Source: Bryobacteraceae bacterium
GTDB taxonomy: Bacteria; Acidobacteriota; Terriglobia; Bryobacterales; Bryobacteraceae
Assembly (NCBI GenBank): GCA_036379475.1
Contig: DASVGP010000206.1
Location: 9,860 to 73,859 of the forward strand
Length of the DNA: 64,000 nt
Direction of reading: 5' to 3'
Below the pieces are notes generated by a model that was not told where the DNA came from, did no database searches, and worked only from the letters and a program-made list of their open reading frames with translations. This document shows, piece by piece, positions 14,874 to 37,665 of this stretch (within the stretch, counting starts at the first letter, position 1; every line of letters begins with the position of its first letter). The position numbers were made by a program, and so were the translations under genes.

Positions 14874-15015
14874 CACTTTACGTAAAGAGCAGCGCGCGGT
14901 GATAACACGGGCAATCGAGTGGACACCGTTACAGGGACTACACTACGCTCTTGGTACACCGTAGGTAACTGCTATTAAGAACACATCTCATAAAACCATT
15001 TGTGTGTGAGAATGT

Positions 15016-15250: not shown

Positions 15251-15280
15251 AAATCGGGCGTAATGCGCGGCATACTGGAA

Positions 15281-15560: not shown

Positions 15561-15916
15561 GGTGGGTGTGACGGTACTGCTGCTCGTATCCCCTTGGCAT
15601 TCCATCCAAAAGCCCGACGAACTCACACTGGGCTGCACGGCGTGCCTAACTAATTCCATTCGACCTCTTCGGCAAGCCGTTCGGCGGCGATCTGTTCGGG
15701 TATTTACTGGATTGCTTTCGGACAATCGGCGTGGATACAGCCCTGGACGACACCCCGCGCTCACGAATCCTTTATGCCACCGCATAGTGTCCAGCTTCAC
15801 AAAATGTGTAAGCTGCCGACGTCAAAAGTCGGCCCGATTAGCCATTATCCTTATAGAGGGCGGCGGGTCACACACTGGCCACACTGCGATTCAGATGGCC
15901 CGCGGCCCTATAATAT

Positions 15917-19377: not shown

Positions 19378-20239
19378 TGGCTACAGTTTTTGTATTCTTG
19401 CGGGCGGTAGGCGCCCCAGGAAGCTCGCCCAGTTAATTGAGACTATTCACGCACAGGATCTACCGCGATACGAAATTATCGTTGCTGGTGCTGCTGAGGT
19501 TGAAGGAGTAAAATACATATCTCTGCCGGATTATGCGGCGGGTGGGCTCACATGCCATCTGCGCAACGCCGCCGCCCAACATAGCACGTTAGAATGGATC
19601 GTTTTCGTCGATGACGATATCGTTCTTACGCGGAAGTGGTGTGCGGCTCTATGCAATCATCACTCCCCAGGGGATATGGTCGGGACTCGCCTGCTTAACC
19701 TTGATGGCACTCGTCACTGGGACTGGGCCAGCACGGGCGGCCCTCGTGGTCAAATTCTGCTCGACTACGGAGAAGTGGACCAGCACCACTACCTTACGGG
19801 CGGTCTGCTCGTTGTGAGGGCGAAAGTTTGGGAAGCGGTTCGTTGGAACGAGGCACTCAGGTACCGGCAGAAAGAAGATGTGGTCTACTCTCGCGATGCC
19901 TATAAACGTGGGTTCACCAGCTCCTTTTGCGGTGGAGCTATCGCAATTCATAATGACGAGACTTATACACAGGTTGGTCGGCGAGTACCACGCCGCAGCC
20001 CAGAAGGTGCCCGCATTTGGATGGCGGGAAGCTTGCTGCCAGCGTCGGTAGAGTACCTAGTCGCCAGATCGGAGGAGGAGAAAAGGAGGTCCAGAATCCC
20101 GGAGGCCGCTGACTGTCTCCGACTCGCCATCCACAAGTCTCCGGGTTGCGTCGAGGCGCAAGCCGGCCTAGCTGCTCTGGAACTAGCGTACGATGGGCCA
20201 GTCGATTCCGGTTCCTGGCAACCGAGCCCGGCGATCTGA
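19367..20239 (+). CDS. GT-A-fold (family 2-like) glycosyltransferase
   Basis: ATG at 19367 overlaps the radical SAM stop by 11 nt. YSFCILAGGRRP...YEIIVAG...WIVFVDDDIVL contains a DxD motif. Confidence 0.5.
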   Translation: MRPDGYSFCILAGGRRPRKLAQLIETIHAQDLPRYEIIVAGAAEVEGVKYISLPDYAAGGLTCHLRNAAAQHSTLEWIVFVDDDIVLTRKWCAALCNHHSPGDMVGTRLLNLDGTRHWDWASTGGPRGQILLDYGEVDQHHYLTGGLLVVRAKVWEAVRWNEALRYRQKEDVVYSRDAYKRGFTSSFCGGAIAIHNDETYTQVGRRVPRRSPEGARIWMAGSLLPASVEYLVARSEEEKRRSRIPEAADCLRLAIHKSPGCVEAQAGLAALELAYDGPVDSGSWQPSPAI

Positions 20240-22440: not shown

Positions 22441-24957
22441 GTGCCGCGTGAAAGCGCACTGTATATAGAGCAGAGGAGTACGGGAGTGGACCGGTGGCAA
22501 GGAGTCGAGAGCTTCGGGCGGAATCTGAAGCAAACATTCCGAAGGCTCTGGAAGAGCCCTGGATTTACTGCAATTTCGGTGTTGATTTTGGCGCTTGGAA
22601 TTGGTTCCAGCGTAGCCGCGTTTCGTTTGCTCGATGCATTATTGTTCCGGCCGCTGCCGGTGGAGAAACCAGGGCAGTTAGTGCGTATTGATGCAATCGG
22701 ACGGATTGGAAAATTCGGAGGATTGCCTTCGACAATCGTGAATCCGCTAAAGGGCATTCCTGGATTTGCCGGTTTTTGCGGATACGGCGAGCATTCGTTC
22801 CCAGTGGAGATCAATAGAAATCTCCAGCAGCTGGGCGCATTCCTGGTCATGGGGGGGTGCTTCCATACGCTTGGCCTCCATGTGCAATTGGGCAGAGCGA
22901 TTGCTCCCGAAAACGATCATTGGGGGACCGAACCGGTTGCGGTGCTGACAGACTGGTTCTGGCACAGCGCCTACGATGGTCGCCCGGATGTTTTGGGAAA
23001 GCAGATCCGCATTAACAATCGCGCGTACACGATTATTGGCGTCGCTCAGAAGCAATTCTCTGGGCTGACTTTGGGTTTTCGAGCCGGTATTATCCTCCCG
23101 CTGCAACAAGAAGCGTCAGATCTTCCGGGCGGCCGCCGCCCTACGGTTTACCACCTAAATTTACTTGCCCGAAGATCCCCGAACGTTTCGGACCGGCAGC
23201 TTCAGATACGGGTCACCGCGAGTGAGCACCATCTGCTTGAAGCAAGCGTTCCCTCTTTCTACAGTCCTGAACAGCGGAAACAATACTTATCGAGTAAACT
23301 TGTCGTGACCTCGGCGCGGACGGGCATTGATTATTGGATCCGACATCGTTTTGGAAAACCGCTATACGCGACCTTCGGAATATGTGCCGCGATTTTGTTA
23401 ATCGGCTGGATGAATATAGTCAATCTCTTGCTGGCGCGGAACGTGTCGCGCCAGCAGGAGGTTGCGGTACGGCTTGCACTGGGAGCCACACGGCGAAGTC
23501 TGGCGGTTCTGCTGGGCCTGGAGGCTACGATTCTAACGCTGGCCGGAAGTGCCATCGGTGTTGCCATTGCGGTTTGGGTCGACCGACTTTTGCTGGCTGA
23601 ATTCGCTGCTCAGTTCAGGGTTCACTTATCTGCCGGGTTCGACCGAAGTGTTTTGTTCTTCCTTTTCATTGTGATTCTCGGGGCATTTCTTGCTTTTTGG
23701 GGGGCATGCGTTTGGCAGATTAATCGTCTATGCAAGGAGACCGTGCTAAACGAGAGCGGGCGCGGCGTTGTCCGAGGCAGCGCCCATGCACAGAAGATTT
23801 TGCTCGGTGGGCAGATTGCCGGCACGCTTGCCCTGGTAACGGTATGCAGTCTGTTTGCGGCCTCGCTCAAAAATCTGTACGATATCCACTTGGGGGTGCA
23901 TACACGCAATGTCTGGGAAGCCTCTCTATCGCCCAGGCCAGGCGGATATCGCGACATCCAACGAACCGCGTATTACACGGACCTTTTGAACCAGTTCCGC
24001 ACGGCCCCCGGAATCCTTTCCGCGAGCCTCTCTTCTTTCATCCCATACGAGTCGCCCGTATTCTGGGACTATGTAACCAATGTCGAGAATCCAATTCCCG
24101 GAAACAAGATTCCAGCGCGCGAAGTCTATGTGTCCGATGGCTTTCTTCGTACACTCGGCATGAAATTGATCGCCGGGCGGGATTTTCAACCCGGTCAGAG
24201 CCGCTCCGGCGAGCCTTCCGTAATCTTGAGCGAATCGTTGGCTCAACACCTCGGCGGCGTACAGGAAGTGTTGGGACACCACATAAGGCTGGGGGATAGA
24301 AAAGGGTACCAGAGGCTCCTCGTGGTTGGAGTGGCATCGAACGCACAACTAAGTCTCGCGGATCCAGACGATCACAAACCATTTCTCGTATATATAGATT
24401 TTTGGCAACATCCTCAAGTACAGGCTTACCCCACAATCACTTTGAAAACGGCGAGCTCCACTTTATCCGCAAACCTTGTGCGCCAGATTGTTCGCTCACG
24501 CGGCAGGGAATTCGTGGAAACATTCACCACTCTCAATTCAGAGAAAGACGGCGCCTTGACCGAGAACCTGCTACTCGCTTATCTTTCTAGCGGCCTTAGC
24601 GCGCTAGCATTATTCATGGCCGCGGCGGGATTGTTCGGCCTATTAAGCTATCAAGTGACCAGACGCACCAACGAGATTGGAGTTCGCATGGCTTTGGGAG
24701 CAGAACGCGCGCAGGTTCAATGGCTCATCTTACGGCAGGTTTTTGCTCTCGTTGTATTCGGATCTCTGGCAGGTATTGGGCTAAGTTTCGCCGTTGGCAG
24801 GACCATTGCAGGCCTTCTCTACGGGGTAGGCCCGAACAATCTATGGATTCTCAGCTTGTCAGTTGCAATTTTGATTGCAACCGCACTCTGTGCGGCATGG
24901 ATTCCAGCGAGGCGTGCCTCTTCTGTGAATCCCTTGGTTGCATTACGACACCAATGA
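22441..24957 (+). CDS. ADOP-type duplicated MacB/FtsX-like ABC permease
   Basis: 838 aa. N-terminus LKQTFRRLWKSPGFTAISVLILALGIGSSVAAF is typical of MacB-like permeases. Two FtsX-type 4-TM modules, each preceded by a large periplasmic domain. No adjacent ATPase gene. Confidence 0.85.
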   Translation: MPRESALYIEQRSTGVDRWQGVESFGRNLKQTFRRLWKSPGFTAISVLILALGIGSSVAAFRLLDALLFRPLPVEKPGQLVRIDAIGRIGKFGGLPSTIVNPLKGIPGFAGFCGYGEHSFPVEINRNLQQLGAFLVMGGCFHTLGLHVQLGRAIAPENDHWGTEPVAVLTDWFWHSAYDGRPDVLGKQIRINNRAYTIIGVAQKQFSGLTLGFRAGIILPLQQEASDLPGGRRPTVYHLNLLARRSPNVSDRQLQIRVTASEHHLLEASVPSFYSPEQRKQYLSSKLVVTSARTGIDYWIRHRFGKPLYATFGICAAILLIGWMNIVNLLLARNVSRQQEVAVRLALGATRRSLAVLLGLEATILTLAGSAIGVAIAVWVDRLLLAEFAAQFRVHLSAGFDRSVLFFLFIVILGAFLAFWGACVWQINRLCKETVLNESGRGVVRGSAHAQKILLGGQIAGTLALVTVCSLFAASLKNLYDIHLGVHTRNVWEASLSPRPGGYRDIQRTAYYTDLLNQFRTAPGILSASLSSFIPYESPVFWDYVTNVENPIPGNKIPAREVYVSDGFLRTLGMKLIAGRDFQPGQSRSGEPSVILSESLAQHLGGVQEVLGHHIRLGDRKGYQRLLVVGVASNAQLSLADPDDHKPFLVYIDFWQHPQVQAYPTITLKTASSTLSANLVRQIVRSRGREFVETFTTLNSEKDGALTENLLLAYLSSGLSALALFMAAAGLFGLLSYQVTRRTNEIGVRMALGAERAQVQWLILRQVFALVVFGSLAGIGLSFAVGRTIAGLLYGVGPNNLWILSLSVAILIATALCAAWIPARRASSVNPLVALRHQ

Positions 24958-25380
24958 CGCAGGTCCTCTCACTATGACCTCGGCTATTTACTCCAGTCAT
25001 GCCGCCGACTGACGTACCCTCGTGTAGCTGATCGAACCGATCCCAGCACTGCTTACCCGCCCTCAAGAACTGAATACTACTGCCCAACAGATGCGCTCCG
25101 TTGCGTGTGGCGTGTCGACCAAACCGGAGCACCACGCGAGATGCTTCAGCCAATCAACCCAGATTCACTCTGCGATGGCTACTACTTGGTTCCACTTCCT
25201 TTCGCCACATTGTGGTATAGTTTTTTGAGCTGTCATCTTATTGGAGAGAGATCCTGGCGCATTCAGAGGAAGCAACTCGGTGTCACTCCCGCCGCCTACG
25301 TAATCGTTTCTGGATCCGACGCGCCTTACGTCGTCTAGCCACACTTCTTCGCATACGGCCAGTCGCTCAGGAGTATTCCG

Positions 25381-27021
25381 TTGTCTGCTGTGCTGTTTGA
25401 TGGAGTTCCTCGTTCCTTAGAAACAGCGAAAGACGCTCACCCATCTTCTGTCCGCATTTTTGGCAACTCCATTTTCGTCAATCAGTTGCTCATAGCGTTT
25501 CTCACGTATGGAACCGCAGATCATTATTACTTTTTTATACGAGATCCTAGCTGTGATGTGGTGCGCACTAAGGAACAACTTGGGCTTCCTACACGAGCGG
25601 AGCTCCTGACGCCTATTACCGTGATGGACCTCCCAGCTACGGCTGCTACCACATTTGTCACACCTCGTGCGTTTCCACAAAACTTGTCGGTTCTTCGTAA
25701 ACTACTGAGCCCTAGCTCAGCCATCGTCTCGTTTATTCATGCGTTAAGCGATATCTTGGCATGTGATTTGTGTGTATACTTACTATCTTTGGGGGCTTTG
25801 CGGGGAGATGCAGTGGTTTGTTCTTCACATGCGGGCAAAATAGCATTACAGCGCTTATTGTTGGAAACGGCCATCTCCTTAGGAGTAGTGCCCCACCAAG
25901 CCGATGCAATCTTTTCTCGTTTTATGTTCCCGGTAATTCCATTAGGGTTACATTGTGACCGCTATCGGTGCGATCAGCTCGAAGCACGCTTGCAATTAGG
26001 CATCCGCAAGGACGACATTGTTATATTGTCATTCGGCAGACTGAGCCCGTTTGCAAAAGCAGATCCAGTGCCGTTGCTGTTAGCGTTTCGCGAATTACTG
26101 GCCATCACCGATCGCAGGCTGATGCTTCTGATAGCTGGAGATGACACACGACATCAAATGGCAGATAAACTGCGAGACTATGCTAGCAGTCTCGGCTGTC
26201 ACGAAAGTGTAGCGGTGTATCCTGATGTGTCGCTATCGACGAAACGTGCTCTATATGGAGCCGCAGATATTTTTGTTTCTTTAAGTGATCACATACAGGA
26301 AACATTTGGCATAGCTCTCATGGAAGCAATGGCATCTAGATTACCTGTCGTGGCTGCGGACTGGAGTGGCCATCGTGACATTGTTCAGCAGGGAATTACG
26401 GGGTACTTGATACCAACATATTGGGTTGACCTGGGAGACGAGTTGGAGCTACTTCGCGGCCCACTGGAAATGGAGGGTCGCAATAGTTATTTGTCGGCGG
26501 CAACGGTCGTTGACATGGAGACACTGATAGACCGCCTAAAGAGGCTAATAAATAATGCGGCTCTAAGACAAGAAATGGGGGCATCTGGTTATAGACGAGC
26601 TGTAGAAACATACGATTGGCGGCGCGTGGTGCCGCGTTACGAGGAACTCTTTAACGGGCTCAAAGAAGCCATCGCTTCAGATACTCCAAATAGACGGGGA
26701 CTGCACGGAGGACCGCATTCGTACAAAACACAGCAGATATTTTCCAGCTATCCTACTGGATGCCTGGACGACAATGCTCCGCTAGTATTAACGTCACTTG
26801 GCAGACGGTGGCTATGTGCACCATTTCCTCTAAACGTCATTTCTGAACACAGCGCCGACTTGCATATCTGCAGGTCTATTTTGTCCGTACTTCACACCGA
26901 TCCTGAAGGATCGAGCTCCGTTGAGACCCTTGGGCGTTATTTTAATCAAGTGTTTCCCAGGTTTGTTATACGTTCGACAGTCGGCCGGCTAATTAAATAT
27001 GGACTGCTGTCCAAGAAGTGA
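25381..27021 (+). CDS. Glycosyltransferase, GT-B fold (GT1/GT4), with ~110-aa C-terminal extension
   Basis: ETFGIALMEAMASRLPVVAADWSGHRDIVQQGITGYLIP signature. TTG start per the ORF track. The tail ends in a winged-helix-like ...VETLGRYF...VGRLIKYGLLSKK. Confidence 0.8.
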   Translation: MSAVLFDGVPRSLETAKDAHPSSVRIFGNSIFVNQLLIAFLTYGTADHYYFFIRDPSCDVVRTKEQLGLPTRAELLTPITVMDLPATAATTFVTPRAFPQNLSVLRKLLSPSSAIVSFIHALSDILACDLCVYLLSLGALRGDAVVCSSHAGKIALQRLLLETAISLGVVPHQADAIFSRFMFPVIPLGLHCDRYRCDQLEARLQLGIRKDDIVILSFGRLSPFAKADPVPLLLAFRELLAITDRRLMLLIAGDDTRHQMADKLRDYASSLGCHESVAVYPDVSLSTKRALYGAADIFVSLSDHIQETFGIALMEAMASRLPVVAADWSGHRDIVQQGITGYLIPTYWVDLGDELELLRGPLEMEGRNSYLSAATVVDMETLIDRLKRLINNAALRQEMGASGYRRAVETYDWRRVVPRYEELFNGLKEAIASDTPNRRGLHGGPHSYKTQQIFSSYPTGCLDDNAPLVLTSLGRRWLCAPFPLNVISEHSADLHICRSILSVLHTDPEGSSSVETLGRYFNQVFPRFVIRSTVGRLIKYGLLSKK

Positions 27022-27039
27022 GGGGATTGTATACAATGC

Positions 27040-27380
27040 AACTTGTCCTCGTCTGCACGATCGCGCCATATGGGATGATTCGGCAGATCTGATTGCGGGG
27101 AGCGCTTTCGCCGGACCACATTCAACATGCTGCTGGCAACGCCCCCGATCCTGGCGCCGGCCAAACTGGCCCAGTACATCAAAGGAAGTTCCTCGCGGCA
27201 TCTGCAAGTCGAGTTTCCGAGCTGCGCAATCAATACTGGGGATCAGCACATGTGGGCGCGAGGATACTTCTGCGCACCGGTGGCGCGGTGGACGAAGCGA
27301 CGATTAAGCCTATATAGCGAAAACCAGAGGGGGATGAAGACGATGACGCTTTCAAGCTCACCGCGCCGACCAAAGCCTTG
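27040..27380 (+). pseudogene. tnpA: IS200/IS605-family TnpA (Y1 transposase) remnant, truncated and frameshifted
   Basis: PAKLAQYIKGSSSRHLQVEFPS...GDQHMWARGYFC continues in another frame as GGAVDEATIKP. The N-terminal HUH region is absent. Confidence 0.7.
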
Positions 27381-28095
27381 AGCCGGCTCTCAGCCGGGGA
27401 AAACCTCGGGCGGCTTAAACCCGTTACGCGAGTTCAGTCGGCTGCGGGGCCGGCTACGGATGCTTCGTCAAGGCACCTGTGCGGCGGTTTTGGAGCGAAA
27501 GTGTGGTCTCGATCAAAAACAGGCACTTGAGGCGCCAAAGAGTGGGAAAGCTGCTGCAGGTGGGGAAGGAACGTTCGAGCCGAAAGCCACAATGCGATTT
27601 CCTCGACTCATCGGCGGGACCGATACGGGTGTATGGAAGCTAACGGCGGCGCACTTTCGTGGCGGGAGTGATTCCGGAGGGAAAACGCTCTGGCCTTGCC
27701 AAATCAGCCTCGGCGACAATCGAGAAACCCCGGCGAGCGAGTCACTCCGCTCCTCCGTTCCCCGCGCTTCCGAACGGCAGCGCATTTTCTCCGTTCTTTT
27801 TTGCTCACTAACGAGAAATCTCGGTTTATTTTCCGTCTTTAGTGTGATACAATCAGGCCGCGACAAGAGTCGCTATAGCTCACGAAGAAGCCTGCGGCCA
27901 CCGTTGCAGGGCCTTTCCTGAGCATATTGCTTCTTTCTATTTGAGGAGAGCTTGACGATGTTTCGTTGGCACCGAATTTACCTCAAAGCGTATTGGAAAT
28001 GCGCTGCACACACCAATTTATTGATTGGCTGTACAGCGCGCATCCGTGGCACCTTCTAATGTCAGTTAGCACTTTCGAAAGGAGAACAATCAACA

Positions 28096-28260
28096 ATGGC
28101 GGAAAAAGAAGAAAACGAACAAGAAAATAAAATCCTGGACTTCGAGTTCGAAGAATTGGAACAGCGTATCGCTCCCTCGATTCTATCATCGTGCAGTAAC
28201 TGCAGTGGCTGCAGCGGTTGTGCCAATGGTGGGTGCTCCGGGTGCGAGAGCTGCAGTTAA
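28096..28260 (+). CDS. Putative RiPP precursor peptide, 54 aa: acidic leader plus 22-residue core with 7 Cys
   Basis: Not in the ORF track because it is under 60 aa. ATG at 28096, GGAG at 28081-28084, stop at 28258-28260. Translation: MAEKEENEQENKILDFEFEELEQRIAPSILSSCSNCSGCSGCANGGCSGCESCS. Lies 68 nt upstream of the DUF692 gene on the same strand. Confidence 0.75.
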   Translation: MAEKEENEQENKILDFEFEELEQRIAPSILSSCSNCSGCSGCANGGCSGCESCS

Positions 28261-28271
28261 ACACACAGTTA

Positions 28272-28301
28272 CCCGGCCGCCGCTTTTAATGAGCGGCCGG
28301 G
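28272..28301 (+). terminator. Perfect 9-bp GC stem-loop between the precursor ORF and the MNIO gene (attenuator/stabiliser candidate)
   Basis: CCCGGCCGC (28272-28280), 12-nt loop, GCGGCCGGG (28293-28301). No clear U-tract follows. Confidence 0.45.
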
Positions 28302-28328
28302 CTACATTTCTAAGCGGATTATCCCGAT

Positions 28329-29165
28329 ATGTACAGCAATCTGCCGCAACTCGGCGTTGGGTTGGGCTACAGAATGCCTCTTCACAATGACCTACTAGCA
28401 AACAGGCATACTTTTGATTTCTTGGAACTGATTAACGACCAGTTTATTTTTTCTCCGCTCGACAAGCAAGAGCAAATATTGAGAGACCTGCGATCCATTC
28501 CCCTTGTTGCTCACGGGGTTGCCATGTCCGTGGGCACTGCCCAACCTCTCGACCAAGACTATTTGCAAGCAACAGTTGCCTTTGTGGATCATATACGCGC
28601 CCCCTGGTTTAGTGATCACCTCTGCTTCACTAAAACCGATCTCGCTGACCTAGGCCAGTTAACGCCTGTCTGGTTTACCGAAGAAACCCTTGCACAGGTC
28701 ATTAGCAATGTTATGGCGATCAAACGTGCATGTCCGGCCGTTCCCTTTTTACTCGAGAACATTACATATTACTTTCCACTACCAGGCTCGGAGATGACCG
28801 AGGCAGAGTTCATATCCCGCGTCCTCGTGGAGGCAGACTGTGGTCTATTGTTGGACGTCAATAACGTTTTCATCAATTCACAGAATTTAGGGTTCGATCC
28901 GTATGACTTCTTGACGGCGATACCACTGGAGCGGGTTGTTCAAGTCCATATCGCTGGCCACAAAGAAACACCAGGCCTAATTATCGATACTCATGACAGG
29001 CCAATGACAAAAGATGTTTGGGACATACTATCATTCGTAGTGGCTCGTGCCCCTGTTAAGGCAGTATCATTAGAATGGGATTCAAGTTATCCGGCCTTTT
29101 CCGTCATCGAGCACGAATTGGCTTGCGCACGATCGCTCTACTCGCATGCATCCCCATGTCTTTGA
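28329..29165 (+). CDS. DUF692 / MNIO (multinuclear non-heme iron oxidase, MbnB/TglH/BufB-like)
   Basis: 278 aa TIM-barrel-like. LGVGLGYR...FDFLELI...PLVAHGVAMSVGT...APWFSDHLCF...FLLENITYY...LLLDVNNVFINS...VVQVHIAGH matches the conserved DUF692 blocks as I remember them. Confidence 0.8.
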   Translation: MYSNLPQLGVGLGYRMPLHNDLLANRHTFDFLELINDQFIFSPLDKQEQILRDLRSIPLVAHGVAMSVGTAQPLDQDYLQATVAFVDHIRAPWFSDHLCFTKTDLADLGQLTPVWFTEETLAQVISNVMAIKRACPAVPFLLENITYYFPLPGSEMTEAEFISRVLVEADCGLLLDVNNVFINSQNLGFDPYDFLTAIPLERVVQVHIAGHKETPGLIIDTHDRPMTKDVWDILSFVVARAPVKAVSLEWDSSYPAFSVIEHELACARSLYSHASPCL

Positions 29166-30007
29166 TCGAAATGCAACGCGCCCTTAGCGTTATTTTGACG
29201 TCACCCGGCGTGCGACACGAATACCAGCGCGACCCCGACTTCGCCCTGCGACAATTTTCCCTCACTGAGCGCGAACGCACAACGTTGGCCGCCTTGGACA
29301 GCGGACGCCTACAGCGTTACTCTGCCATGCTTATCGCTGGTAGGCTTGAGTTGGCGTTGAAGGCCCTCCCCGTAACACGCCTGTTACTCCCAGCAGACTT
29401 TACAATGAAGTTTGGAGAGCTTTACAGCCGAGACTATCCACCCGTGATCCTCGCCGGATCGGCGATGTTGCATGAGGTCCATAGCATTCGACAATTCATT
29501 ACTGACCTCACACAAAGCCAGGTGTTAAACGATCCTTACCTTTGTAACGTCGTCCGCTTCGAAGCGTCGGTCTTTCACCTCACCAACGACATAGAGGCCT
29601 TTTCTGCGGCAACGCGCTGTCACCAGGAGCTAGTAACTCCAGTTACTGACACCACTCGCCCTTTACTAGAACGGCATGTCTTAATATGCACCTTTGACTC
29701 CGACATATTGGCGATACTGAATGCACTTCGGCATGGGCGGAGGCCAGAAGAACATCTGTTATCCTCTACCACCATTCTACTGCTACGGCGAAATGTAGAT
29801 ACGCCGGCAGTCTCCATAATTCGACTCAATGAGGCATCCCGTGAGCTACTACAGAAGTGTGACGGAGCGACGGATATACGCGAGCTAAGTCGTTTGTATT
29901 CTGATCGCATCGTTGATGTGCTCGATCGGTTTGTGCAGTCGCATATCATCGCGATGCTTGCGGCGGAAGAAGCTCTGCCGACGGCTGCCCTCTCAACAGG
30001 TATTTAA
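29156..30007 (+). CDS. MNIO partner protein (DUF2063/MbnC-like N-region) with PqqD-like RRE C-terminus
   Basis: ATG at 29156 overlaps the MNIO stop by 10 nt. N-terminus is MSLIEMQRAL.... C-terminus ILLLRRNVDTPAVSIIRLNEASRELLQKCDGATDIRELS...VLDRFVQSHII fits a PqqD-like pattern. Confidence 0.6.
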   Translation: MSLIEMQRALSVILTSPGVRHEYQRDPDFALRQFSLTERERTTLAALDSGRLQRYSAMLIAGRLELALKALPVTRLLLPADFTMKFGELYSRDYPPVILAGSAMLHEVHSIRQFITDLTQSQVLNDPYLCNVVRFEASVFHLTNDIEAFSAATRCHQELVTPVTDTTRPLLERHVLICTFDSDILAILNALRHGRRPEEHLLSSTTILLLRRNVDTPAVSIIRLNEASRELLQKCDGATDIRELSRLYSDRIVDVLDRFVQSHIIAMLAAEEALPTAALSTGI

Positions 30008-30012
30008 CAGCG

Positions 30013-31800
30013 ATGTGTGGAATAGCAGGAGCGATTGGTCTGGGGCGCGATCGCACCTTGACACGGACAATGATCGATGCCTTGCACCATCGAGGCCCGG
30101 ACGGTGCGGCAATATGCTCCACAACTCTTGCAGATTTAGGCGCTTGTCGGTTAAGCATTATCGACCTCACCGCTGGCCCACAACCTATTTGCAATGAGGC
30201 TGGAACACTGTGGATTGCTTTCAACGGCGAGATCTATAATTTTCGTGAACTACGTCAGATGCTTCTTTTCCGAGGGCATAGATTCTCTACCCAGACCGAT
30301 ACAGAAGTAGTTCTTCATTTGTACGAGGAATTCGGTCCAGCAGGCGTGGAGAAACTCCGGGGAATGTACGCGTTTGCGATTGCCGATGACACATCCGTAT
30401 TCTTGTGCCGTGACCGGGTCGGCATAAAGCCCTTATATCTATGTACACTGAAGAACTCCAGTGTAGTTTTTGCCTCGGAAATAAAAGCTCTGCTGCAATC
30501 GCCAGACGTCAGCACAAGTATTAACTATCGGGCTCTCGCAGATAAACTCGTCTTAGGGCATCCATGCAGTACAGACACGATGTTTCAGGACATCTCGCTG
30601 CTCCCTCCGGGAACATACCTAGAAATACGGCGCAACAATGATGGCCTGGCCATTACAAGTACTTGCTACTATTCGCTTAATCTGGCCCCGAATAACTCGC
30701 GTGATGATTGTATCTGCACGGTGGCACCGATCGTGGCTAGCCTGCTGGAGGAGGCTGTTGCCTCTCATCTTGTCTCTGACGTGCCAATTAGCGTATGTCT
30801 CTCGGGCGGCCTGGATTCTAGCATCCTTGGTGCATACACGAGTCGTCAGAAGGCCGCCGCTGTCTCCACTTTCTCGATCAGCGACACCGTAACCAACCCC
30901 GATGTGACGTTGGCAAGGCGAAGCGCCAAGATCATCGGCGCTGTACATTACGAATATATCATGAGTTTTGAGGAGTTTCTTGCCGCCATTCCTGGGTGTG
31001 TAACGGCTAGTGAAACGTGGACTAGTCTATTCGCTCTGCCATTTTACATTTTATGTCAGAAGATGTCCAAGCTTACAAAGGTGTGTCTAAACGGTGAGGG
31101 TGCAGACGAGTTGTTTGGTGGTTACCCAGCCTTTCTCGCCCCTCCTTCGGCACGACTACAGCGCCTGGCGCTGGGGCTAGAGCGTGTACAGCGGCTTGGT
31201 GTTCATCCAAGTCAGCGGGCACAGCAGTTAATCGAACAATGCCAGTCCGCCCAAACACTCGCAGCATCGGCGGCAGCATCCTTTGAGTATCACTTGACCG
31301 ATCAGCTAACCAATTTTCACCTAAATGTAATTGATAAATACTCAATGGCGGCCAGTATTGAGATGCGGGTGCCATATCTGGACCAGCCACTAATTGATTA
31401 TGTAGCTAGACTGCCGGCGGCGGTTCGGTGTAATTATGTTATGGGGATCACCAAGCATGTGTTGAAACGAGTCGCTCTTCGGTTTGTACCAGAAGTTCCA
31501 GTTGATGCAATACTCAGAAAGAAGGAGGGCCTACCCAGTGCTGGCTTATTGTGCCATAGAAAACTGACCCAATTGTGTGCCACGGCTCCTGACGAGTACG
31601 TTGATAGGCATGAGTTTAGATCGTGGGTTGCGAATGATAACGACGTTAGCAGTAACAAACGAGACCTTTTACTATTTGACGCCTTTCGCTATATATTCTG
31701 TGTCCATCGCGGCGTTCCTCCTCGAGGCCTTAGCTTCCACGATCTGCTCCAACAATGGCGACCTAAACCGGGTGACGCGCAGCCAGCCGTCACACCATAG
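30013..31800 (+). CDS. Asparagine synthetase B-like glutamine amidotransferase
   Basis: N-terminal nucleophile MCGIAG (class II GATase) and PP-loop LSGGLDSS. Confidence 0.85.
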   Translation: MCGIAGAIGLGRDRTLTRTMIDALHHRGPDGAAICSTTLADLGACRLSIIDLTAGPQPICNEAGTLWIAFNGEIYNFRELRQMLLFRGHRFSTQTDTEVVLHLYEEFGPAGVEKLRGMYAFAIADDTSVFLCRDRVGIKPLYLCTLKNSSVVFASEIKALLQSPDVSTSINYRALADKLVLGHPCSTDTMFQDISLLPPGTYLEIRRNNDGLAITSTCYYSLNLAPNNSRDDCICTVAPIVASLLEEAVASHLVSDVPISVCLSGGLDSSILGAYTSRQKAAAVSTFSISDTVTNPDVTLARRSAKIIGAVHYEYIMSFEEFLAAIPGCVTASETWTSLFALPFYILCQKMSKLTKVCLNGEGADELFGGYPAFLAPPSARLQRLALGLERVQRLGVHPSQRAQQLIEQCQSAQTLAASAAASFEYHLTDQLTNFHLNVIDKYSMAASIEMRVPYLDQPLIDYVARLPAAVRCNYVMGITKHVLKRVALRFVPEVPVDAILRKKEGLPSAGLLCHRKLTQLCATAPDEYVDRHEFRSWVANDNDVSSNKRDLLLFDAFRYIFCVHRGVPPRGLSFHDLLQQWRPKPGDAQPAVTP

Positions 31801-32086
31801 GATGCTGTGTTTGGAACCTGATCCCTCGCAACTTCGCCCCTCACTGCCGCACGCAAGTGGAGTTCGCTTTTCTATGGTTCCGAACATGTACCGGCGGTTA
31901 CGCGGAGGGCAACTTGGCAGCTCGTGAGGGAGGCTAAATGTCTAGAACTGTCGCAGCCCATCTCGCCAAGGCCTCAACAGCGCGCTGCTGAGGTCTTCGG
32001 TGAGAAGCCGGGCTGTGGCTACGGAAGCGGACCACAACCTACGCTGAGGCTGGGGACTGCACAAGGTCAGAAGGGAAAGCGAGCTT

Positions 32087-34096
32087 ATGCGTATTTGCTT
32101 CGTATCTAAATATCCTCCGATTGAAGGGGGGGTGAGTATGCAAGCCTACTGGATTGCATATGGATTAGCAATGCGAGGGCATACTATAGATGTGGTCACG
32201 AACGGTGCTGAGGTAGAAAGATCATTTCGAATGGCCATTCAGCCCTCTGATCATAGCTTCCTTCAACCTACGTTTCCGGAAAGTGGTGGGCGGGTGAGGA
32301 TGATTAGTAGCGCCGCTGAACCAGCGGCTAAGGTAGCTCACATTCCTGCTTCCAATCCTTTTGTCACCAAATTGGCATCGTTGGCTTTGGACACTATCCG
32401 AGGTGGGAACCATGAAGCACTGTATTGCAGTTACTTCGAGCCATACGGTGTTGCTGGGCACCTAGCTTCAGTGTGGAGCGAAGTGCCGTACGTTTTGGAG
32501 CACGCTGGCAGCGATATAGATCGATTGATGCTGCGACCGGGATTGGCCAGCTCGTATTTGCAAATAATTACGGCAGCAGACGCCGTTATTACGCGGAGAG
32601 GATTATTAGAGCGCTTTCTGCGAATGATGGTGAGGCCTGATAGGTTGCATGTCGACGTACCATTCGCGGTTCCGCCACTCTTTTCTCCAAGAGAACCAGC
32701 ACTCGACATCAACAGTCTAGCGCAGAGCCTCTCAGAGACTGACGTCTCCCATATTCCATCTGAATTGCGACCGGCCGCAAAGACGTTTGATCCAGGCTTA
32801 CCCACCATTGGAATATATGGAAAAGTCGGTGAGGCCAAAGGATCCTTCGATTTGCTTGGTGCGTTGAGGGACCTAAAACAGCAAGGCCTGAAGTTTAATC
32901 TTCTTGCAATGATAAACGGTTGGAGTGCAGCTCGCTTTTTTGCACGAGTAGTTGAGAGTGACCTATCGGAGGTCACCTGGGTCCTTCCGTTCCTTCCACA
33001 CTGGCGCGTTCCAAGCTTCATACGAGCCTGTACTGCGGTCTGTTTTTTAGAACGAGGTTTTCAGATCGGAATCCATGGGCCTAGGGTTCCGCGAGAAGTG
33101 CTGGCGTGCGGCACCTGTCTCATTTTGTCGCAAGAGATTGCGGCCAAGCAATTCTACGCGGAACAGATTGTAGATGGAAGCAACATGGTGCTCATCCAGG
33201 ATCCGCGCGAACGCGTAGATCTCGCGAATAAGCTTCGACTGGTTGTTGACAATCCAGAGTTTGCGAGGAAGGTAGGATTGGAGGCCGCTACGGTCTCGAA
33301 AAACATCGAGCACTTCGACTCGGCCATCGATGGTTACGAACGCGTGTTTTGGGACACCATGGGCAAGTCGCGCCACGATTCTTTAGGTAAGCGTTATTCA
33401 GCCCAGGTGTCACCCGGCACAGCCGCACGCCTCAATTCTGAAACCTGCATTAACGCACTTTTGCCTTCAGCCTCCCAGCTCATGGCTAAGTACCATTTAT
33501 CGCTGGCCGCGGCAGCCGAAGCTGAGGCGAGCCCGTTGGCTGCTGCCCGCGGAGTGCTGGATGCGCTCACCGCTCACATCCAAAACGAGCCCGAACCGAC
33601 GCGTTCAGCTCTCGCAGACCTCCTTCGCTATGAAAGTGCTCCGCTACTAATGGCACAGCAGCGGCTGCTTAAGGGTGCGCTGCCGTGGTTCAATACGCCC
33701 GATTCGCTGCTTGATGGTGATATTACACGCGGTGGAGCACTTCACCAGGACCTTCGGCCGGTACTCTCCAACTACTGCATCGTATTAGAACTGCAGTATT
33801 CTCCTGAGGATACGCGGGAACTTCTGAGTAATAATGCTCATCTCCTCACAGCCGCTCCAATGACACTGCTTGTCATACTGCGACCCAACTTTTCCACTGT
33901 CGTTTTGAAAGTGTCCGCACTCACGCTGGAGGTCATACGGCTCGCCGACGGCTTCAGGACGATTAGAGATATCGAGAGCTGCTTAGCTAGACAACAGCGG
34001 TTTCAGAAGACAGAAGAACACAGCGCCTCTCTCTGCGAGCTGCTAGTTCGCCTCAGGAGCAAAGAGATTTTGGTGTTGTCTAGTAGCCCCAGGTGA
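32087..34096 (+). CDS. GT-B glycosyltransferase (GT1/GT4) fused to a ~240-aa C-terminal region ending in a PqqD-like RRE
   Basis: N-terminus MRICFVSKYPPIEGGVSMQAYWIAYGLAMRGHTIDVV is typical of GT4. The C-terminus TLLVILRPNFSTVVLKVSALTLEVIRLADGFRTIRDIES...LCELLVRLRSKEILVL parallels the MNIO partner's tail. Confidence 0.7.
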   Translation: MRICFVSKYPPIEGGVSMQAYWIAYGLAMRGHTIDVVTNGAEVERSFRMAIQPSDHSFLQPTFPESGGRVRMISSAAEPAAKVAHIPASNPFVTKLASLALDTIRGGNHEALYCSYFEPYGVAGHLASVWSEVPYVLEHAGSDIDRLMLRPGLASSYLQIITAADAVITRRGLLERFLRMMVRPDRLHVDVPFAVPPLFSPREPALDINSLAQSLSETDVSHIPSELRPAAKTFDPGLPTIGIYGKVGEAKGSFDLLGALRDLKQQGLKFNLLAMINGWSAARFFARVVESDLSEVTWVLPFLPHWRVPSFIRACTAVCFLERGFQIGIHGPRVPREVLACGTCLILSQEIAAKQFYAEQIVDGSNMVLIQDPRERVDLANKLRLVVDNPEFARKVGLEAATVSKNIEHFDSAIDGYERVFWDTMGKSRHDSLGKRYSAQVSPGTAARLNSETCINALLPSASQLMAKYHLSLAAAAEAEASPLAAARGVLDALTAHIQNEPEPTRSALADLLRYESAPLLMAQQRLLKGALPWFNTPDSLLDGDITRGGALHQDLRPVLSNYCIVLELQYSPEDTRELLSNNAHLLTAAPMTLLVILRPNFSTVVLKVSALTLEVIRLADGFRTIRDIESCLARQQRFQKTEEHSASLCELLVRLRSKEILVLSSSPR

Positions 34097-34109
34097 GCGA
34101 GGTGTAAAA

Positions 34110-35348
34110 ATGCCGACCGTGGATCACCACAACCAGCTATCGCTAATTGGCGGCGCTTCTGAATGTGTACGGGGAGACATTGAGGTCGTGCCGCAAACCA
34201 TAGGCACCACTATACGCTACGTGGTAGTAGATCCAAAGGCACAACGCTATTTTGTTTTACCAGCTGAGGATTACTACGTCTTTAGTCTTTTGGATGGTAA
34301 CCACTCTCTTGAAGACATCAGTGGCAGGCTAAAGCTCGATTATGGTCTTGCGGCCTCGCTAGCCACCATAGAGCGTTTTATACTTCGTTTGCGAGCGGCG
34401 GGATTGCTTCTCACTGCTCCGGAGCCATCACGCAGGCCGCGCCCATATGAACTGCTCAATAAGGTGCTGTATTTGCGAGTAAAAGCGATTAACCCCGATC
34501 GCTTGCTGACATTTATTCTTCCGTACGTTAAGATGTTATTTACTCCTCTATTTGTAATCGTTGCTTGCATCCTTATTGCATCAGCTAGTGGTCTCATAGT
34601 CACACACAAATCTAAGTTGTATAGTGATATGAGGGTAGTAGTTAAAAGCGGGTTGATTGTATGGTTATGGCTGCCTAGTTTGGTAGCCGCAGCATTACAC
34701 GAGTGCGCTCACGGATGCACTTGTAAATATTGGGGTTGTCGTGTCAAGGAAATGGGGCTGCTATTAATTTATTTTTGCCCTGCCCTGTACTGCGATGTGA
34801 CCGATGCATGGCGATTGGCTGACAAGAAGCCTAGACTGTTGATTATGGTTGCCGGCGGATTGTTCGAGGCATTCATATGGGCCGTGGCGGTTCACCTATG
34901 GATACTCGCGTCTAACCCACATATACAACTGGTGCTTACGCTTGTAATTATGGCATCCGGGGCAGTGTTGCTACTAAATTTTAATCCACTGATAAAGCTC
35001 GACGGATACTATATCCTAAGTGATCTACTAGACATACCGAATCTGCGCTCGAGGTCGCTACGGTTCACTGCGCGCACCGTTAAGGCCGTTCTGTGCCGGA
35101 AAGCGATTCCACGTGCTGCCATGAAGGAACGGATAGCCTATTTAGGATATGCCGGTTTTGCAGTGCCATTTTCAGCGTATTTCCTGTGTGCTGGTACGGA
35201 TAGACTTATACATACGATGCTTCATACCAAAAATACGTGGGCGTTTGGCGTGTCAGCCATATTTATGACGTTATTCATAAGTAAACTCGCAATTACCATT
35301 GCCGAACACATCGCGAGGAAGCGTTCTAAGCAGCAGGCGCGTGCGTGA
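34110..35348 (+). CDS. Membrane M50 (site-2 protease family) zinc metalloprotease with N-terminal PqqD-like domain
   Basis: HExxH (LHECAHG) in a TM helix and LLNFNPLIKLDGYY (NxxPxxxxDG). The N-terminal YVVVDPKAQRYFVLPAEDYYVFSLLDGNHSLEDISGRL...FILRLRAAGLL is RRE-like. Confidence 0.8.
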   Translation: MPTVDHHNQLSLIGGASECVRGDIEVVPQTIGTTIRYVVVDPKAQRYFVLPAEDYYVFSLLDGNHSLEDISGRLKLDYGLAASLATIERFILRLRAAGLLLTAPEPSRRPRPYELLNKVLYLRVKAINPDRLLTFILPYVKMLFTPLFVIVACILIASASGLIVTHKSKLYSDMRVVVKSGLIVWLWLPSLVAAALHECAHGCTCKYWGCRVKEMGLLLIYFCPALYCDVTDAWRLADKKPRLLIMVAGGLFEAFIWAVAVHLWILASNPHIQLVLTLVIMASGAVLLLNFNPLIKLDGYYILSDLLDIPNLRSRSLRFTARTVKAVLCRKAIPRAAMKERIAYLGYAGFAVPFSAYFLCAGTDRLIHTMLHTKNTWAFGVSAIFMTLFISKLAITIAEHIARKRSKQQARA

Positions 35349-35495
35349 GTAGAGTAGGCAAATAACGTAATTGCGTGGCCATAGAATTAATACGAAATCA
35401 CGTAATTCGCGGTTCCCGCTGTTTTCTCGGGCGCATTTCCTTCCGAAAGGTCATTCATCATTTCGAGGGAAGGACTGTCGTTTCCGAGGGTCTAC

Positions 35496-35526
35496 TGCAT
35501 TGCGCAAACAACCGTTTGGCAATGCA
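35496..35526. terminator. 13-bp stem-loop (one bulge) at the convergent junction after the M50 gene
   Basis: TGCATTGCGCAAAC / loop AACC / GTTTGGCAATGCA. No U-tract on either strand. Confidence 0.35.
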
Positions 35527-35595
35527 CGCAATTCGCAATAATGGGCCAAAAGGCTCTTTCACGCGATTTCTCGCGAACCGTTCTTTGGTTCGGCG

Positions 35596-36237
35596 TCAAT
35601 TTGGATCGGGGAATTCCCGCTCCTGCCACTGCGCGTATTCCTCGGGTGAGATCAGGTGCTCGCGTCCGTCCCGAATCCACAGAGGATACAGCTCCGGGTA
35701 CATCGGGTCCAAGCTGCTCAGCAGGCCGGCCAAGCCGTTTTTCCGTTCGCGTTTGCTCCAGGCGGCAAACTGGGCCGCACGCGTTTCGGCGTTTTCCTCG
35801 AGAAAAGGATGCTCGGCCGACAGCCGCTCCCATTGCGCTTTGATTTCCGGTGCGTTCTCCTGGAACTCGGCCGCGAGTGCCTGCTCGATTAAAAATTCCA
35901 GCTCGTAGGCGACGATTTGATGCTCCTTGCCGTGGTCGAGGAAAGCCAGCGAGTCGCGCAACTGCCGCGACTGAACCAGCAAAGTGGGCCACAGCATCTC
36001 GACGCCCAGGCGTGTTCCGATTTCCGGATACATCGGGTCTGGCTTTTGCTTCCGCCGTTGCCCTTCGTAAGCCTTGCGGAGGTCGTACGCCAAGCTGAGA
36101 AAGAAGCCTTCCTTGTCGCGGATCAGGGGAGAGCGCTCGTTGACGTTATGGACGATTTTGTGCGCCCGCCGCAGCGAGAGATAATCCGACAACAGCGCGA
36201 TGCCGGCAGCGTTTTTCAGTGCCTTGTAGGTGAACAT
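35596..36237 (-). CDS. Hypothetical protein, third gene of the HNH-integrase module
   Basis: 213-aa ORF with protein-like composition. Its C-terminal motif ELYPLWIRD...ISPEEY recurs in the decayed module near 20.9 kb. Confidence 0.6.
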   Translation of the reverse strand: MFTYKALKNAAGIALLSDYLSLRRAHKIVHNVNERSPLIRDKEGFFLSLAYDLRKAYEGQRRKQKPDPMYPEIGTRLGVEMLWPTLLVQSRQLRDSLAFLDHGKEHQIVAYELEFLIEQALAAEFQENAPEIKAQWERLSAEHPFLEENAETRAAQFAAWSKRERKNGLAGLLSSLDPMYPELYPLWIRDGREHLISPEEYAQWQEREFPDPN

Positions 36238-36313
36238 GAGCGGCTCAAGGAAATCCTACAGCCGACGAGGCGCGGCGCTTGATCCTCCCGGCAGTGTCGC
36301 GGCCATTTTCTCC

Positions 36314-37276
36314 CTACTGCCGGGAGTTTTTTGTCCGCTCTCCGCTCGCGATCCGAATGCCCAGGTGGTCGCAGGGCGCATCGTTGAGATCCTGCCGCAC
36401 TCCCAAATACCTTTCCGTCGTTTGTATAGAAGCATGCCCCAAGGAAAGTTGGATCTGTTCGAGCGGCGCCCGACCTTTGTGGGCGAGTTTCGCAAACGTG
36501 CGCCGCACGTCGTGGGGCGCGATCGCCGCCCCGATCTTTTCTCCGTAGAAATTCACCACCTCGTAGACCGCCTGTGCGCCGAGCCCCTGGCGCACGAGGC
36601 GCCCGCCTTTGTTCACCGCGCCGAGCAACGGCCCGTTTTGGAATCCGGCCGCCGCGAGCCACTCGTCTACCGCGGTTTTGGCCCACGCCGGCATGGGCAC
36701 GGTGCGGATGCGATTGCCCTTGCCCGCGAGATCGACCAGGCACCAGCGCCCGTCGCGCTGCTGGATGGCTTCGATTTCTAACGCGGCGAGTTCCTCGCGG
36801 CGCACGCCGCAGCCTACGAGCAGCGCCAGCAGCGCGCGGTCGCGCTTTCCTTTTAGCGTTTTTCCATCCGGCAGATCCAAAAGCCGCTCGGCCTGGTCCA
36901 AGGTGAGCCAGTTCCCTGCCCGGACGCCGTGCCGCTTGGCTCCTTTCACGCGCGCGATCGCCGCCGCGGTTTCGGGCGGAAGGAAACCGTTGTCGGCCGC
37001 CTCGGCCGCCAGCTTTTTGAGCGCGCTCAAGCGGACATTAATCGAGGAGGCGGCGAGGCCGACCGTTTCCTGGGCCGTGCGCCAGGCCTGCACGGTGGCT
37101 TTGGTGAAGCCGGGCGGCCCGCTTTGCGCGCACCAGACGCGGAAGCTTTCCAATGCCTGGTCGTAAGCGCGTTTCGAGTGCGCGGAGGAGACGCTATCGA
37201 GCACGAGCTGCTTCAGACGGCCCCAAAGCTCTTCGTTTGCCGTGCGCGCGAGCGCTGTCTGGTTTCCTTCGCTCAT
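36314..37276 (-). CDS. Tyrosine recombinase/integrase
   Basis: Start taken at MSEGNQ (ATG at 37276). Catalytic signature VGCGVRREEL (R), HDVRRTF (HxxR), LGHASIQTTERYL (H...Y). Confidence 0.88.
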   Translation of the reverse strand: MSEGNQTALARTANEELWGRLKQLVLDSVSSAHSKRAYDQALESFRVWCAQSGPPGFTKATVQAWRTAQETVGLAASSINVRLSALKKLAAEAADNGFLPPETAAAIARVKGAKRHGVRAGNWLTLDQAERLLDLPDGKTLKGKRDRALLALLVGCGVRREELAALEIEAIQQRDGRWCLVDLAGKGNRIRTVPMPAWAKTAVDEWLAAAGFQNGPLLGAVNKGGRLVRQGLGAQAVYEVVNFYGEKIGAAIAPHDVRRTFAKLAHKGRAPLEQIQLSLGHASIQTTERYLGVRQDLNDAPCDHLGIRIASGERTKNSRQ

Positions 37277-37665
37277 GCGGCCAACGGAAACTGCAACTGC
37301 AGAGGGCGGCCGGGATGCTGCTCGGCCCACAACTCTGCCAGCAATGGCAGGATCCATCTGCGAATAGCCAGAAGACGGTGGAGGCGTGCGTGGCAGCAGG
37401 CGCAGACGGTGATCAGCATCTCGGGTCTGTTGAGACCGGGCTGCCGGTGATGCACGTGCAACCGCTCGACCGAGCCGCAGGCGCGGCACCGATGGCCGTC
37501 GCGATCAAGAATTTCCTCTCGCAATCCGGAAAACCGGGCGCGGGAGTCGGCGAGGGCGCGGTAGCACGGGCGGCAGAGTCCGCCGATGGCGGGAAGGGCT
37601 CTGCCGCAGGGGCAAAAGAGCGGCCGTTGGGTAGGGAGACAGCGACGACGGGGCAAAAGTTCCAA
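37273..37665 (-). CDS. HNH-motif zinc-finger nuclease-like protein, translationally coupled to the integrase
   Basis: CPCG...CRPC, DGHRCRACGS, LHVHHRQPG...NRPEMLITVCACCHARLH. Its stop overlaps the integrase ATG (ATGA at 37273-37276). Confidence 0.75.
   Translation of the reverse strand: MELLPRRRCLPTQRPLFCPCGRALPAIGGLCRPCYRALADSRARFSGLREEILDRDGHRCRACGSVERLHVHHRQPGLNRPEMLITVCACCHARLHRLLAIRRWILPLLAELWAEQHPGRPLQLQFPLAA

Follow-up and report, generated by a model that had tools for sequence, protein, structure and literature searches.

What does a peptide-recognition motif do at the C-terminal end of a glycosyltransferase (GT)? The question is raised by a 64,000-nucleotide stretch of DNA (hereafter the window) from a Bryobacteraceae bacterium (contig DASVGP010000206.1 of assembly GCA_036379475.1, forward-strand positions 9,860 to 73,859), in which positions 33374-34096 encode residues 430-669, here called the tail, of a 669-residue open reading frame (ORF) on the forward strand (32087-34096). 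According to the window ORFs and their Pfam and NCBIfam matches, the genes of a multinuclear non-haem iron oxidase (MNIO), its partner protein, an asparagine-synthetase (AS)-like enzyme and the fused GT follow one another in this order in a co-directional block. A first-pass annotation of the locus had recognized the same motif in the partner, in the GT tail and at the N terminus of an M50 metalloprotease, and had taken it for the hallmark of PqqD-type recognition elements (RREs) of peptides that are made on ribosomes and then modified post-translationally (RiPPs). As judged from family profiles, the GT tail is an anciently duplicated copy of the partner protein. The domain identities and folds, this paralogy, the conservation of the donor-binding residues and that of the triad of MNIO, partner and fused GT across phyla are observations; on our reading, the locus is probably an MNIO-type RiPP cluster in which the duplicated partner module of the GT4-family enzyme binds the precursor leader, with the GT glycosylating the MNIO substrate peptide directly.

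The sequences quoted for the three proteins are all present, and profile alignments support the proposed register in each of them. The regular expression offered for the motif fits the M50 copy (DGNHSLEDIS) exactly but is slightly too strict for the other two: the partner copy, DGATDIRELS, has D instead of S/T at the third position after DG, and the GT copy, DGFRTIRDIES, has an additional E ahead of the final S. This inexact fit would favour a chance resemblance of short amphipathic segments, as would the pairwise BLASTP E-values of 0.1 or worse: the partner and the GT tail matched each other at E 0.1, in the proposed register, and the M50 N terminus matched neither. Pairwise BLASTP being too weak to decide, family profiles were built. 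In hhalign, the partner family aligned with the GT-tail family over 217 columns (Prob 99.94%, E 1.4e-36), and the M50 N-terminus family aligned, over the last ~80 residues, with the GT-tail family (Prob 96.4%, E 1.2e-9) and with the partner family (Prob 95.7%, E 8.6e-9). In a leave-one-out test, hidden Markov models (HMMs) made from the proteins of other genomes were searched against all 906 window ORFs. The partner HMM found the window GT tail at 6.6e-11, with the next ORF at 0.79 (the window partner itself scored 1.6e-57), and the tail HMM found the window partner at 6.3e-18, with the next ORF at 0.36; in either case the gap to the next-best ORF is at least 10 orders of magnitude. Because a plain HMM of the M50 N terminus did not find the other two RRE proteins significantly among the window ORFs (0.22 and 2.3), its link to them rests on the profile-profile comparison and on the shared PqqD/RRE matches.

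Those matches in Pfam and in the PDB are independent of the comparisons within the locus. Residues 37-100 of the M50 protein match Pfam PqqD (PF05402) at E 1.5e-4, with 22.5 bits against a gathering threshold of 23.4, and the profile of its N terminus finds TfuB1 (9.7e-5), PqqD 3g2b (1.5e-4) and TbiB1 (6.7e-4) among PDB sequences. Among PDB sequences, the tail profile retrieved only PqqD-family proteins at E<=10 (5sxy, E 0.002, PqqD residues 36-92), and 16 of 31 orthologous tails match Pfam PqqD by themselves (best 7.8e-8). The partner alone reaches 0.022 against PF05402 and is homologous by hhalign to both the tail and the M50 RRE. The earlier assignment of all three segments to PqqD-type RREs thus stands, the RRE fold of the partner and of the M50 N terminus being a prediction from homology. 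As a negative control, the C-terminal extension of the GT4 encoded upstream in the same block gave an hhalign Prob of about 1% against all three families. Taken together, the profile results refute chance resemblance, to which we attach next to no probability. The control segment itself is a ~120-residue extension (window 26650-27018) ending in ...VGRLIKYGLLSKK, which also occurs in the close homologues from loci L022 and L027. Having no Pfam match and an hhalign Prob of about 1%, it was ruled out as a fourth RRE.

What, then, is fused to the GT? The tail had been described as carrying a leader-binding RRE domain; an RRE is indeed there, but the fused unit is a whole two-domain partner module and not a bare RRE. 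In the hhalign alignment, partner residues 61-270 pair with tail residues 20-239 (GT ~449-668), and the aligned region includes RFEASVFHL of the partner and LRYESAPLL of the tail, in agreement with the suggestion that the sequences ahead of the motif are paralogous too. The AlphaFold2 (AF2) model of the tail, obtained from a 31-sequence alignment (pLDDT 88, pTM 0.84), is helical in its N-terminal half; beta-strands come next, and then a C-terminal domain made of strands 592-598 and 604-608, helices 611-619, 626-636 and 643-658, and strand 662-665. The AlphaFold and Foldseek check proposed for the tail thus returned a winged-helix-like RRE fold, modelled at pLDDT >90. The top Foldseek matches of the tail in the PDB are NGO1945/DUF2063 (3dee, 6.5e-5, 230 columns) and TglI (8hci_A/8hi7_A, 7e-4, 233 columns), with alignments that span both domains, and PqqD 5sxy ranks lower (target-normalised TM 0.68, E 0.64). 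Chain A of 8hci is the partner TglI, since chain D is the DUF692 enzyme TglH. The paralogy seen by hhalign and the span of the Foldseek alignments together identify the tail as a DUF2063-like helical domain plus an RRE, that is, a complete partner module. The link to TglI and NGO1945 came solely from the predicted fold of the tail, as phmmer of the partner against PDB sequences gave nothing meaningful.

Conservation extends over the whole tail in >500 GT homologues of about 650-700 residues. P558 and G622 do not vary, the CDG motif hardly does (D621, 85%), and the RRE half is the best-conserved part. When the tail profile was searched exhaustively with HMMER, 1504 clusters at 50% identity came back, comprising both fusions and standalone partners; among the best 150 of these, proteins of about 620-715 residues with a C-terminal match are fusions and those of about 265-310 residues are standalone partners. 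The latter match from about residue 60, which means that the fused copy lacks the first ~60 partner residues. The architecture of a full-length partner, standalone or MNIO-fused, is accordingly that of the separate partner gene and not that of the tail, which is GT4-fused and has no counterpart of the N-terminal ~60 residues. A word-indexed homologue search with the partner returned only the partner itself; its homologues were recovered from 85 related loci by phmmer and jackhmmer on six-frame ORFs.

Is this arrangement a peculiarity of one genome? The fused GT occurs in 172 of about 185,000 species representatives, with carriers in, among others, Acidobacteriota, Myxococcota (Sorangium, Corallococcus, Hyalangium, Plesiocystis, Chondromyces), Chloroflexota, Alphaproteobacteria and Actinomycetota (Nocardia, Nonomuraea, Kitasatospora, Actinoplanes, Mycobacterium). 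Among 51 non-redundant loci whose GT is flanked by at least 5 kb in both directions, the GT carries the tail in 49, an MNIO gene lies within 6 kb in 49, and an additional partner-like gene, standalone or MNIO-fused, is found in 47. Given these counts for the MNIO and the extra partner, the tail accompanies the partner and does not replace it, and the co-occurrence points to a conserved core of MNIO, partner and GT-partner fusion. Three further genes of the block are accessory: the AS-like gene is present in about 21 of the 51 loci, and the RRE-M50 protease and the upstream GT4 occur in 4 and 9, respectively, of 81 related loci.

The architecture of the core varies in places. In Kitasatospora humi (L062) the GT and the partner-like tail are separate ORFs, and several Myxococcota have, instead of a standalone partner, one that is joined to the MNIO in a single protein (variant loci L001, L038, L054, L085). 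Two GT-partner fusions are present in L009 and in L059, and L009 has six tandem precursor genes. An Acidobacteriota sub-type (L002, L004, L074; duplicates L003, L005, L007, L010) carries further genes, for a TauD-family dioxygenase, for a class I methyltransferase and, in two copies, for an unannotated protein of ~400 residues; in L004 a C39-peptidase ABC exporter lies nearby as well.

The catalytic part of the fused enzyme is of a class other than the GT2 enzymes of glycocins, as had been proposed: it has a GT-B fold nearest to MshA and BshA, and its Pfam matches are PF00534 and PF13579. PF00535 gave no match at E<=1 on the 669-residue protein, the NCBIfam GT models gave none at E<1, and neither the GT nor the precursor is covered by an NCBIfam model. 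The full-length AF2 model (pLDDT 89.6, pTM 0.90) retrieves MshA 3c4q (4.9e-15) and BshA 6d9t (1e-14) in Foldseek, followed by GlgM, sucrose-phosphate synthase, PglA and PimB' (the GT4 set spans E 5e-15 to 7e-12); its pTM agrees with the tail being packed in a fixed way against the GT. Across 36 homologues G245, K246, K251 and G252 show no variation and line up with the GRxxxxKG donor-phosphate motif, the GKVGEAKG of the GT being aligned to GRIRKTKG of 5i45. E322 and E337, invariant in the same set, align to the two Glu residues of the EX7E motif, with 14 residues between them instead of 7. Because of this insertion the chemistry or the donor may be atypical; it could also mark an unusual acceptor site. 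From its residues, the GT looks catalytically competent but atypical.

Which residue of the peptide might be glycosylated? The leader motif (E/D)-F-x-[F/L]-E-x-[L/V] is found in all precursors detected, with a variant P-x-L-F-E-[RL]-V, and the cores are Cys-dense, with CxxC or CxC repeats. A strict CxxC regular expression found candidate precursors in 10 of the 51 loci; manual inspection of other loci found CxC cores with the same leader motif, so that this expression is too narrow. The first-pass annotation had suggested Ser or Cys as the acceptor. Cys is the sole universal nucleophile of the related cores, and Cys or an MNIO-modified Cys is therefore favoured, Ser appearing unlikely as a universal acceptor. 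In four loci (L014, L025, L036, L069) the precursors end in ...CxGCSM, which resembles the C terminus of Methylosinus MbnA (…CSCM). Such CSM-type ends hint at methanobactin-like metal-binding products.

How might these components work together? The standalone partner (PME-type 2) would present the precursor to the MNIO, which would oxidize the core cysteines. The partner module of the GT most likely binds the same leader motif and would thereby keep the Cys-rich core positioned in the active site of the GT4, where the peptide would be glycosylated directly, before or after the action of the MNIO. In the Bryobacteraceae version, the RRE-fused M50 protease would then recognize the leader and remove it at the membrane. 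Leader binding by the tail has a precedent in MbnABC, where the C-terminal domain of the partner binds the leader by beta-strand addition in an RRE-like manner (PMC8888699), and leader removal by an RRE-fused M50 enzyme has one in the RRE/site-2 protease fusions of daptide pathways.

Several points weigh against this reading. The nearest structural relatives of the enzyme, MshA and BshA, O-glycosylate small molecules and not peptides; the EX7E motif is interrupted by a 7-residue insertion with invariant H330 and P332 (E322-RGFQIGIHGPRVPR-E337, window 33050-33097); and a Ser/Thr position is conserved in no core, that of Sorangium, LCICNGCNCLCWAAKQ, being without any Ser or Thr. Furthermore, the window's own GT tail misses Pfam PqqD at E<=0.01, the tail keeps most of the helical domain that in MbnC contacts the MNIO, and it is by inference that each RRE is taken to bind the leader, that the peptide is taken to be glycosylated and that a sequence of steps and an acceptor are assigned. 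The points that concern catalysis would favour an alternative in which the GT modifies something else (a small molecule or part of the envelope, for instance) or is an inactive scaffold with the tail as a structural or regulatory remnant; GlgM and sucrose-phosphate synthase, also among the nearest folds, likewise use small molecules. Yet the donor-binding residues are invariant in the 36 homologues, the synteny with precursor, MNIO and partner is strict over many phyla, and an RRE motif kept for so long in the tail is hard to explain without peptide binding. We consider a non-peptide or scaffolding role of this kind improbable.

The retained helical domain bears on another possibility, namely that the tail mainly docks the GT to the MNIO, which would either bring the GT into a complex with MNIO and partner or let it stand in for the partner in a second MNIO reaction, the leader being left to the standalone partner. 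In favour of docking, the corresponding helical domain of MbnC is clamped by MbnB loops (PMC8888699), the Foldseek matches to 3dee and TglI cover both domains, and the GT fusion almost always has an adjacent MNIO (49 of 51 loci). Against it, the first helices of MbnC, alpha1 and alpha2, form the main MbnB interface (PMC8888699), and the first ~60 partner residues are the part that the tail does not have. The better conservation of the RRE half, including G622 and D621, fits retained peptide binding, the single-chain pTM of 0.90 suggests that the tail surface is already packed on the GT, and the standalone partner is kept in 47 of the 51 loci. A mainly docking role is therefore rather unlikely, somewhat less so than a non-peptide GT, and the leader-binding and docking roles could coexist. 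Leader binding by the tail and direct glycosylation of the peptide by the GT remain the reading that we prefer.

A comparison with known systems places the cluster more precisely. Like the MNIO partners NGO1945 (3dee), TglI (8hci/8hi7), MbnC and ApyI, the partner module has a helical N-domain and an RRE-type C-domain and is encoded beside an MNIO and a Cys-rich precursor; the GT copy differs from them in being GT4-fused, in being without the first ~60 residues and in co-existing with a standalone partner in the same cluster. The family of the window's standalone partner is PME-type 2 (Leprevost et al., PMC12452194), and both PME-type 2 partners and CxxC 'adjamnio-7' precursors were already catalogued in 2025. 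One PME-type 2 example comes from Plesiocystis pacifica (PMC12452194), which also carries the triad (locus L028); the main text of that paper does not contain 'glyco' and makes no mention of a glycosyltransferase, and in the literature we found no partner module described as fused to anything but an MNIO. The window's MNIO has BufB and HvfB as its nearest NCBIfam models, both under their own cut-offs, and matches 3bww, TglH (8hci_D) and MbnB among PDB sequences. AS-like enzymes amidate or nitrilate the C-termini of RiPPs (PMC13060819). A nitrilotide-type or an ApyHI-type cluster was ruled out, as the precursors and enzyme sets differ.

PqqD and the discrete RREs of lasso-peptide pathways (TfuB1 6jx3, TbiB1 5v1u, PqqD 3g2b/5sxy) belong to the same domain family as the C-terminal ~65-80 residues of both partner and tail and as residues ~28-105 of the M50 protein. 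Unlike them, the cluster has three copies, each in a different catalytic context and none of them a discrete protein of ~90 residues. The M50 protein resembles the daptide RRE/site-2 protease (NF041824) in its N-terminal RRE and HExxH intramembrane metalloprotease, the model covering residues 38-393; such an RRE/M50 fusion is a known architecture that was used to discover daptides (Ren et al., bioRxiv 10.1101/2023.03.08.531785). In contrast to the daptide enzymes, it scores 186 bits against an equivalog cut-off of 300 and is, as noted above, rare among the related loci. No daptide tailoring genes were detected, every scanned protein of the block matching another family. A daptide cluster was ruled out on the sub-threshold NF041824 score, on the precursor, which ends in Ser and not in the invariant Thr, and on the lack of detected daptide enzymes. 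A daptide cluster would be expected to encode an oxidative decarboxylase and an aminotransferase, and the neighbours of the protease gene are those for MNIO, partner, AS-like enzyme and GT.

The glycosyltransferases of glycocins that form S- or O-linkages (SunS, ThuS and GccA type) are GT2 enzymes with a GT-A fold. The fused GT would, like them, attach a sugar to a ribosomal peptide, possibly at Cys, whereas it is a retaining GT4 enzyme of GT-B fold with a dedicated, predicted leader-binding module fused to it. With MshA, BshA and the protein-Ser GlcNAc transferases GtfA and SdgA/B it shares the GT-B fold, and its motifs resemble their GRxxxxKG-like and EX7E-like ones; it differs from these GT4 enzymes in its low identity to them (14-19%), in the EX7E insertion with an invariant His and in the ~240-residue C-terminal partner module. 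The general idea of an RRE combined with a GT is not new. RRE-GT fusions were listed by RRE-Finder in 2020 (PMC7470986), and a 2025 mSystems survey lists RRE fusions with PF00535 (GT2) (PMC12710340); none of these fusions is characterized in the portions of the two papers available to us, and those portions hold no GT4 with a complete MNIO-partner module and no link to MNIO clusters. The Hyalangium orthologue is named 'PqqD family peptide modification chaperone' by NCBI.

The features of the locus are collected in Table 1.

Table 1. Genes and domains of the Bryobacteraceae cluster, in window coordinates.
Feature	Position	Strand	Evidence
MacB/FtsX-type ABC permease, candidate exporter	22441..24957	+	Pfam MacB_PCD 2.8e-26, FtsX 2.8e-25
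Second GT4-family glycosyltransferase, 546 aa	25381..27021	+	Pfam PF00534 5.5e-26
Precursor peptide, 54 aa; acidic leader motif LDFEFEELEQRI; core SSCSNCSGCSGCANGGCSGCESCS, a run of CxxC repeats	28096..28260	+	ORF list; homologous precursors beside the triad in other loci
MNIO (DUF692) oxidase, 278 aa	28329..29165	+	Pfam PF05114 1.6e-80
Standalone MNIO partner ('PME-type 2'), 283 aa	29156..30007	+	NCBIfam ApyI 7.9e-5; Pfam PqqD 0.022
Partner region homologous to GT tail, residues 61-270	29336-29965	+	hhalign
Partner RRE part, residues ~203-273	29762-29974	+	Profile alignments
Asparagine-synthetase-like amidotransferase, 595 aa	30013..31800	+	Pfam Asn_synthase 5.1e-55 and GATase_7; TIGR01536 398 bits
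Catalytic GT-B domain of fused GT, residues 1-429, retaining GT4 type	32087..33373	+	Pfam PF00534 4.9e-9, PF13579 1.1e-6; AF2; Foldseek
Helical DUF2063-like N-domain of GT-fused partner-like module, residues ~449-528	33431..33670	+	AF2 helices 451-528; aligned to partner ~61-150
PqqD-type RRE at GT C terminus, residues ~584-668, containing TLLVILRPNFSTVVLKVSALTLEVIRLADGFRTIRDIES...LVRLRSKEILVL	33836..34090	+	PDB profile, Pfam, AF2, hhalign
Intramembrane M50 (site-2-type, HExxH) metalloprotease, 412 aa	34110..35348	+	NCBIfam daptide_HExxH 8.7e-55
M50 N-terminal RRE, residues ~28-105	34191-34424	+	Pfam PqqD; profile vs PDB

Two of the gene starts deserve comment. The start of the partner gene is ambiguous between an ATG at 29075, the database model at ~29123 and an ATG at 29156. 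Whichever of the three is used, the gene overlaps the MNIO gene at its 3' end, which is consistent with translational coupling. For the fused GT, the homologue search found a 100%-identical protein annotated in a Bryobacteraceae metagenome-assembled genome, and in the public annotation (P0001, 621 residues) the start lies 48 codons downstream from the 32087 ATG (window 32087-32230). The longer ORF is the correct gene model, as the short start would drop the N-terminal motif M-x-I-C-x-x-x-KYPPIEGGVS, which is kept in all homologues.

The cluster block has a GC content of 0.505-0.53 (window ~24000-36000) against 0.58-0.63 in the flanks. Directly downstream, on the minus strand (35596-37489), lie a DUF6904 gene (35596-36237) and then a tyrosine integrase gene (36314-37489); the low GC of the block and the adjoining integrase suggest an island gained by horizontal transfer. 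Between 20 and 45 kb of the window, a search for tRNA genes found none. Farther upstream (14187-20239, GC about 0.53-0.54) are genes for a sulfotransferase-like protein (14187-14873), a GT1-family enzyme (15917-16963), a B12-binding radical SAM protein (17911-19377) and a GT2 enzyme (19328-20239), which may be part of the cluster or of a polysaccharide locus.

In the searchable literature, a GT4 with a complete partner paralogue has not been recognized, and the triad of fusion, MNIO and partner across phyla has not been described; searches on MNIO/DUF692 with GT, on RRE-GT fusions and on GT-B enzymes of RiPP pathways found no biochemical characterization of the GT-partner fusion family. The fusion of an RRE to a tailoring enzyme is a well-known principle, and the present case is a good experimental lead. 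The tail profile of the GT, together with the F-x-F-E leader motif, offers a handle for genome mining, and cultured carriers are at hand in Hyalangium minutum, Corallococcus exercitus, Sorangium, Plesiocystis pacifica and Nocardia brasiliensis. Should the GT merely decorate its peptide in an ordinary way, the result would be a useful annotation of incremental value. A bolder proposal, which we put forward tentatively and with the balance tilted against it, is that the GT4/partner fusion, far from being a peripheral tailoring enzyme, ranks with MNIO and partner as a third core component that defines a class: a large, uncharacterized family of Cys-dense RiPPs modified by MNIOs in Acidobacteriota, Myxococcota, Actinomycetota and other phyla. 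It would capture the leader with its duplicated partner module and glycosylate Cys or an MNIO-made derivative of it (such as a thioamide, enethiol or heterocycle). If so, both the chemistry of peptide glycosylation and the class of enzyme would be unprecedented in RiPPs, possibly with glycosylated methanobactin-like metallophores as the products.

Few RiPP enzyme families are being mined as actively as the MNIOs, the majority of whose clusters are uncharacterized. The present analysis defines a large, phylogenetically broad subfamily in which MNIO and partner travel with a GT4 that holds a captured copy of the partner. If the proposed role of this copy is correct, it would be a clear example of the duplication of a leader-recognition module and its grafting onto new catalysts, and it predicts that these bacteria make glycosylated, Cys-derived and likely metal-binding peptides with a GT-B rather than a GT2 enzyme.

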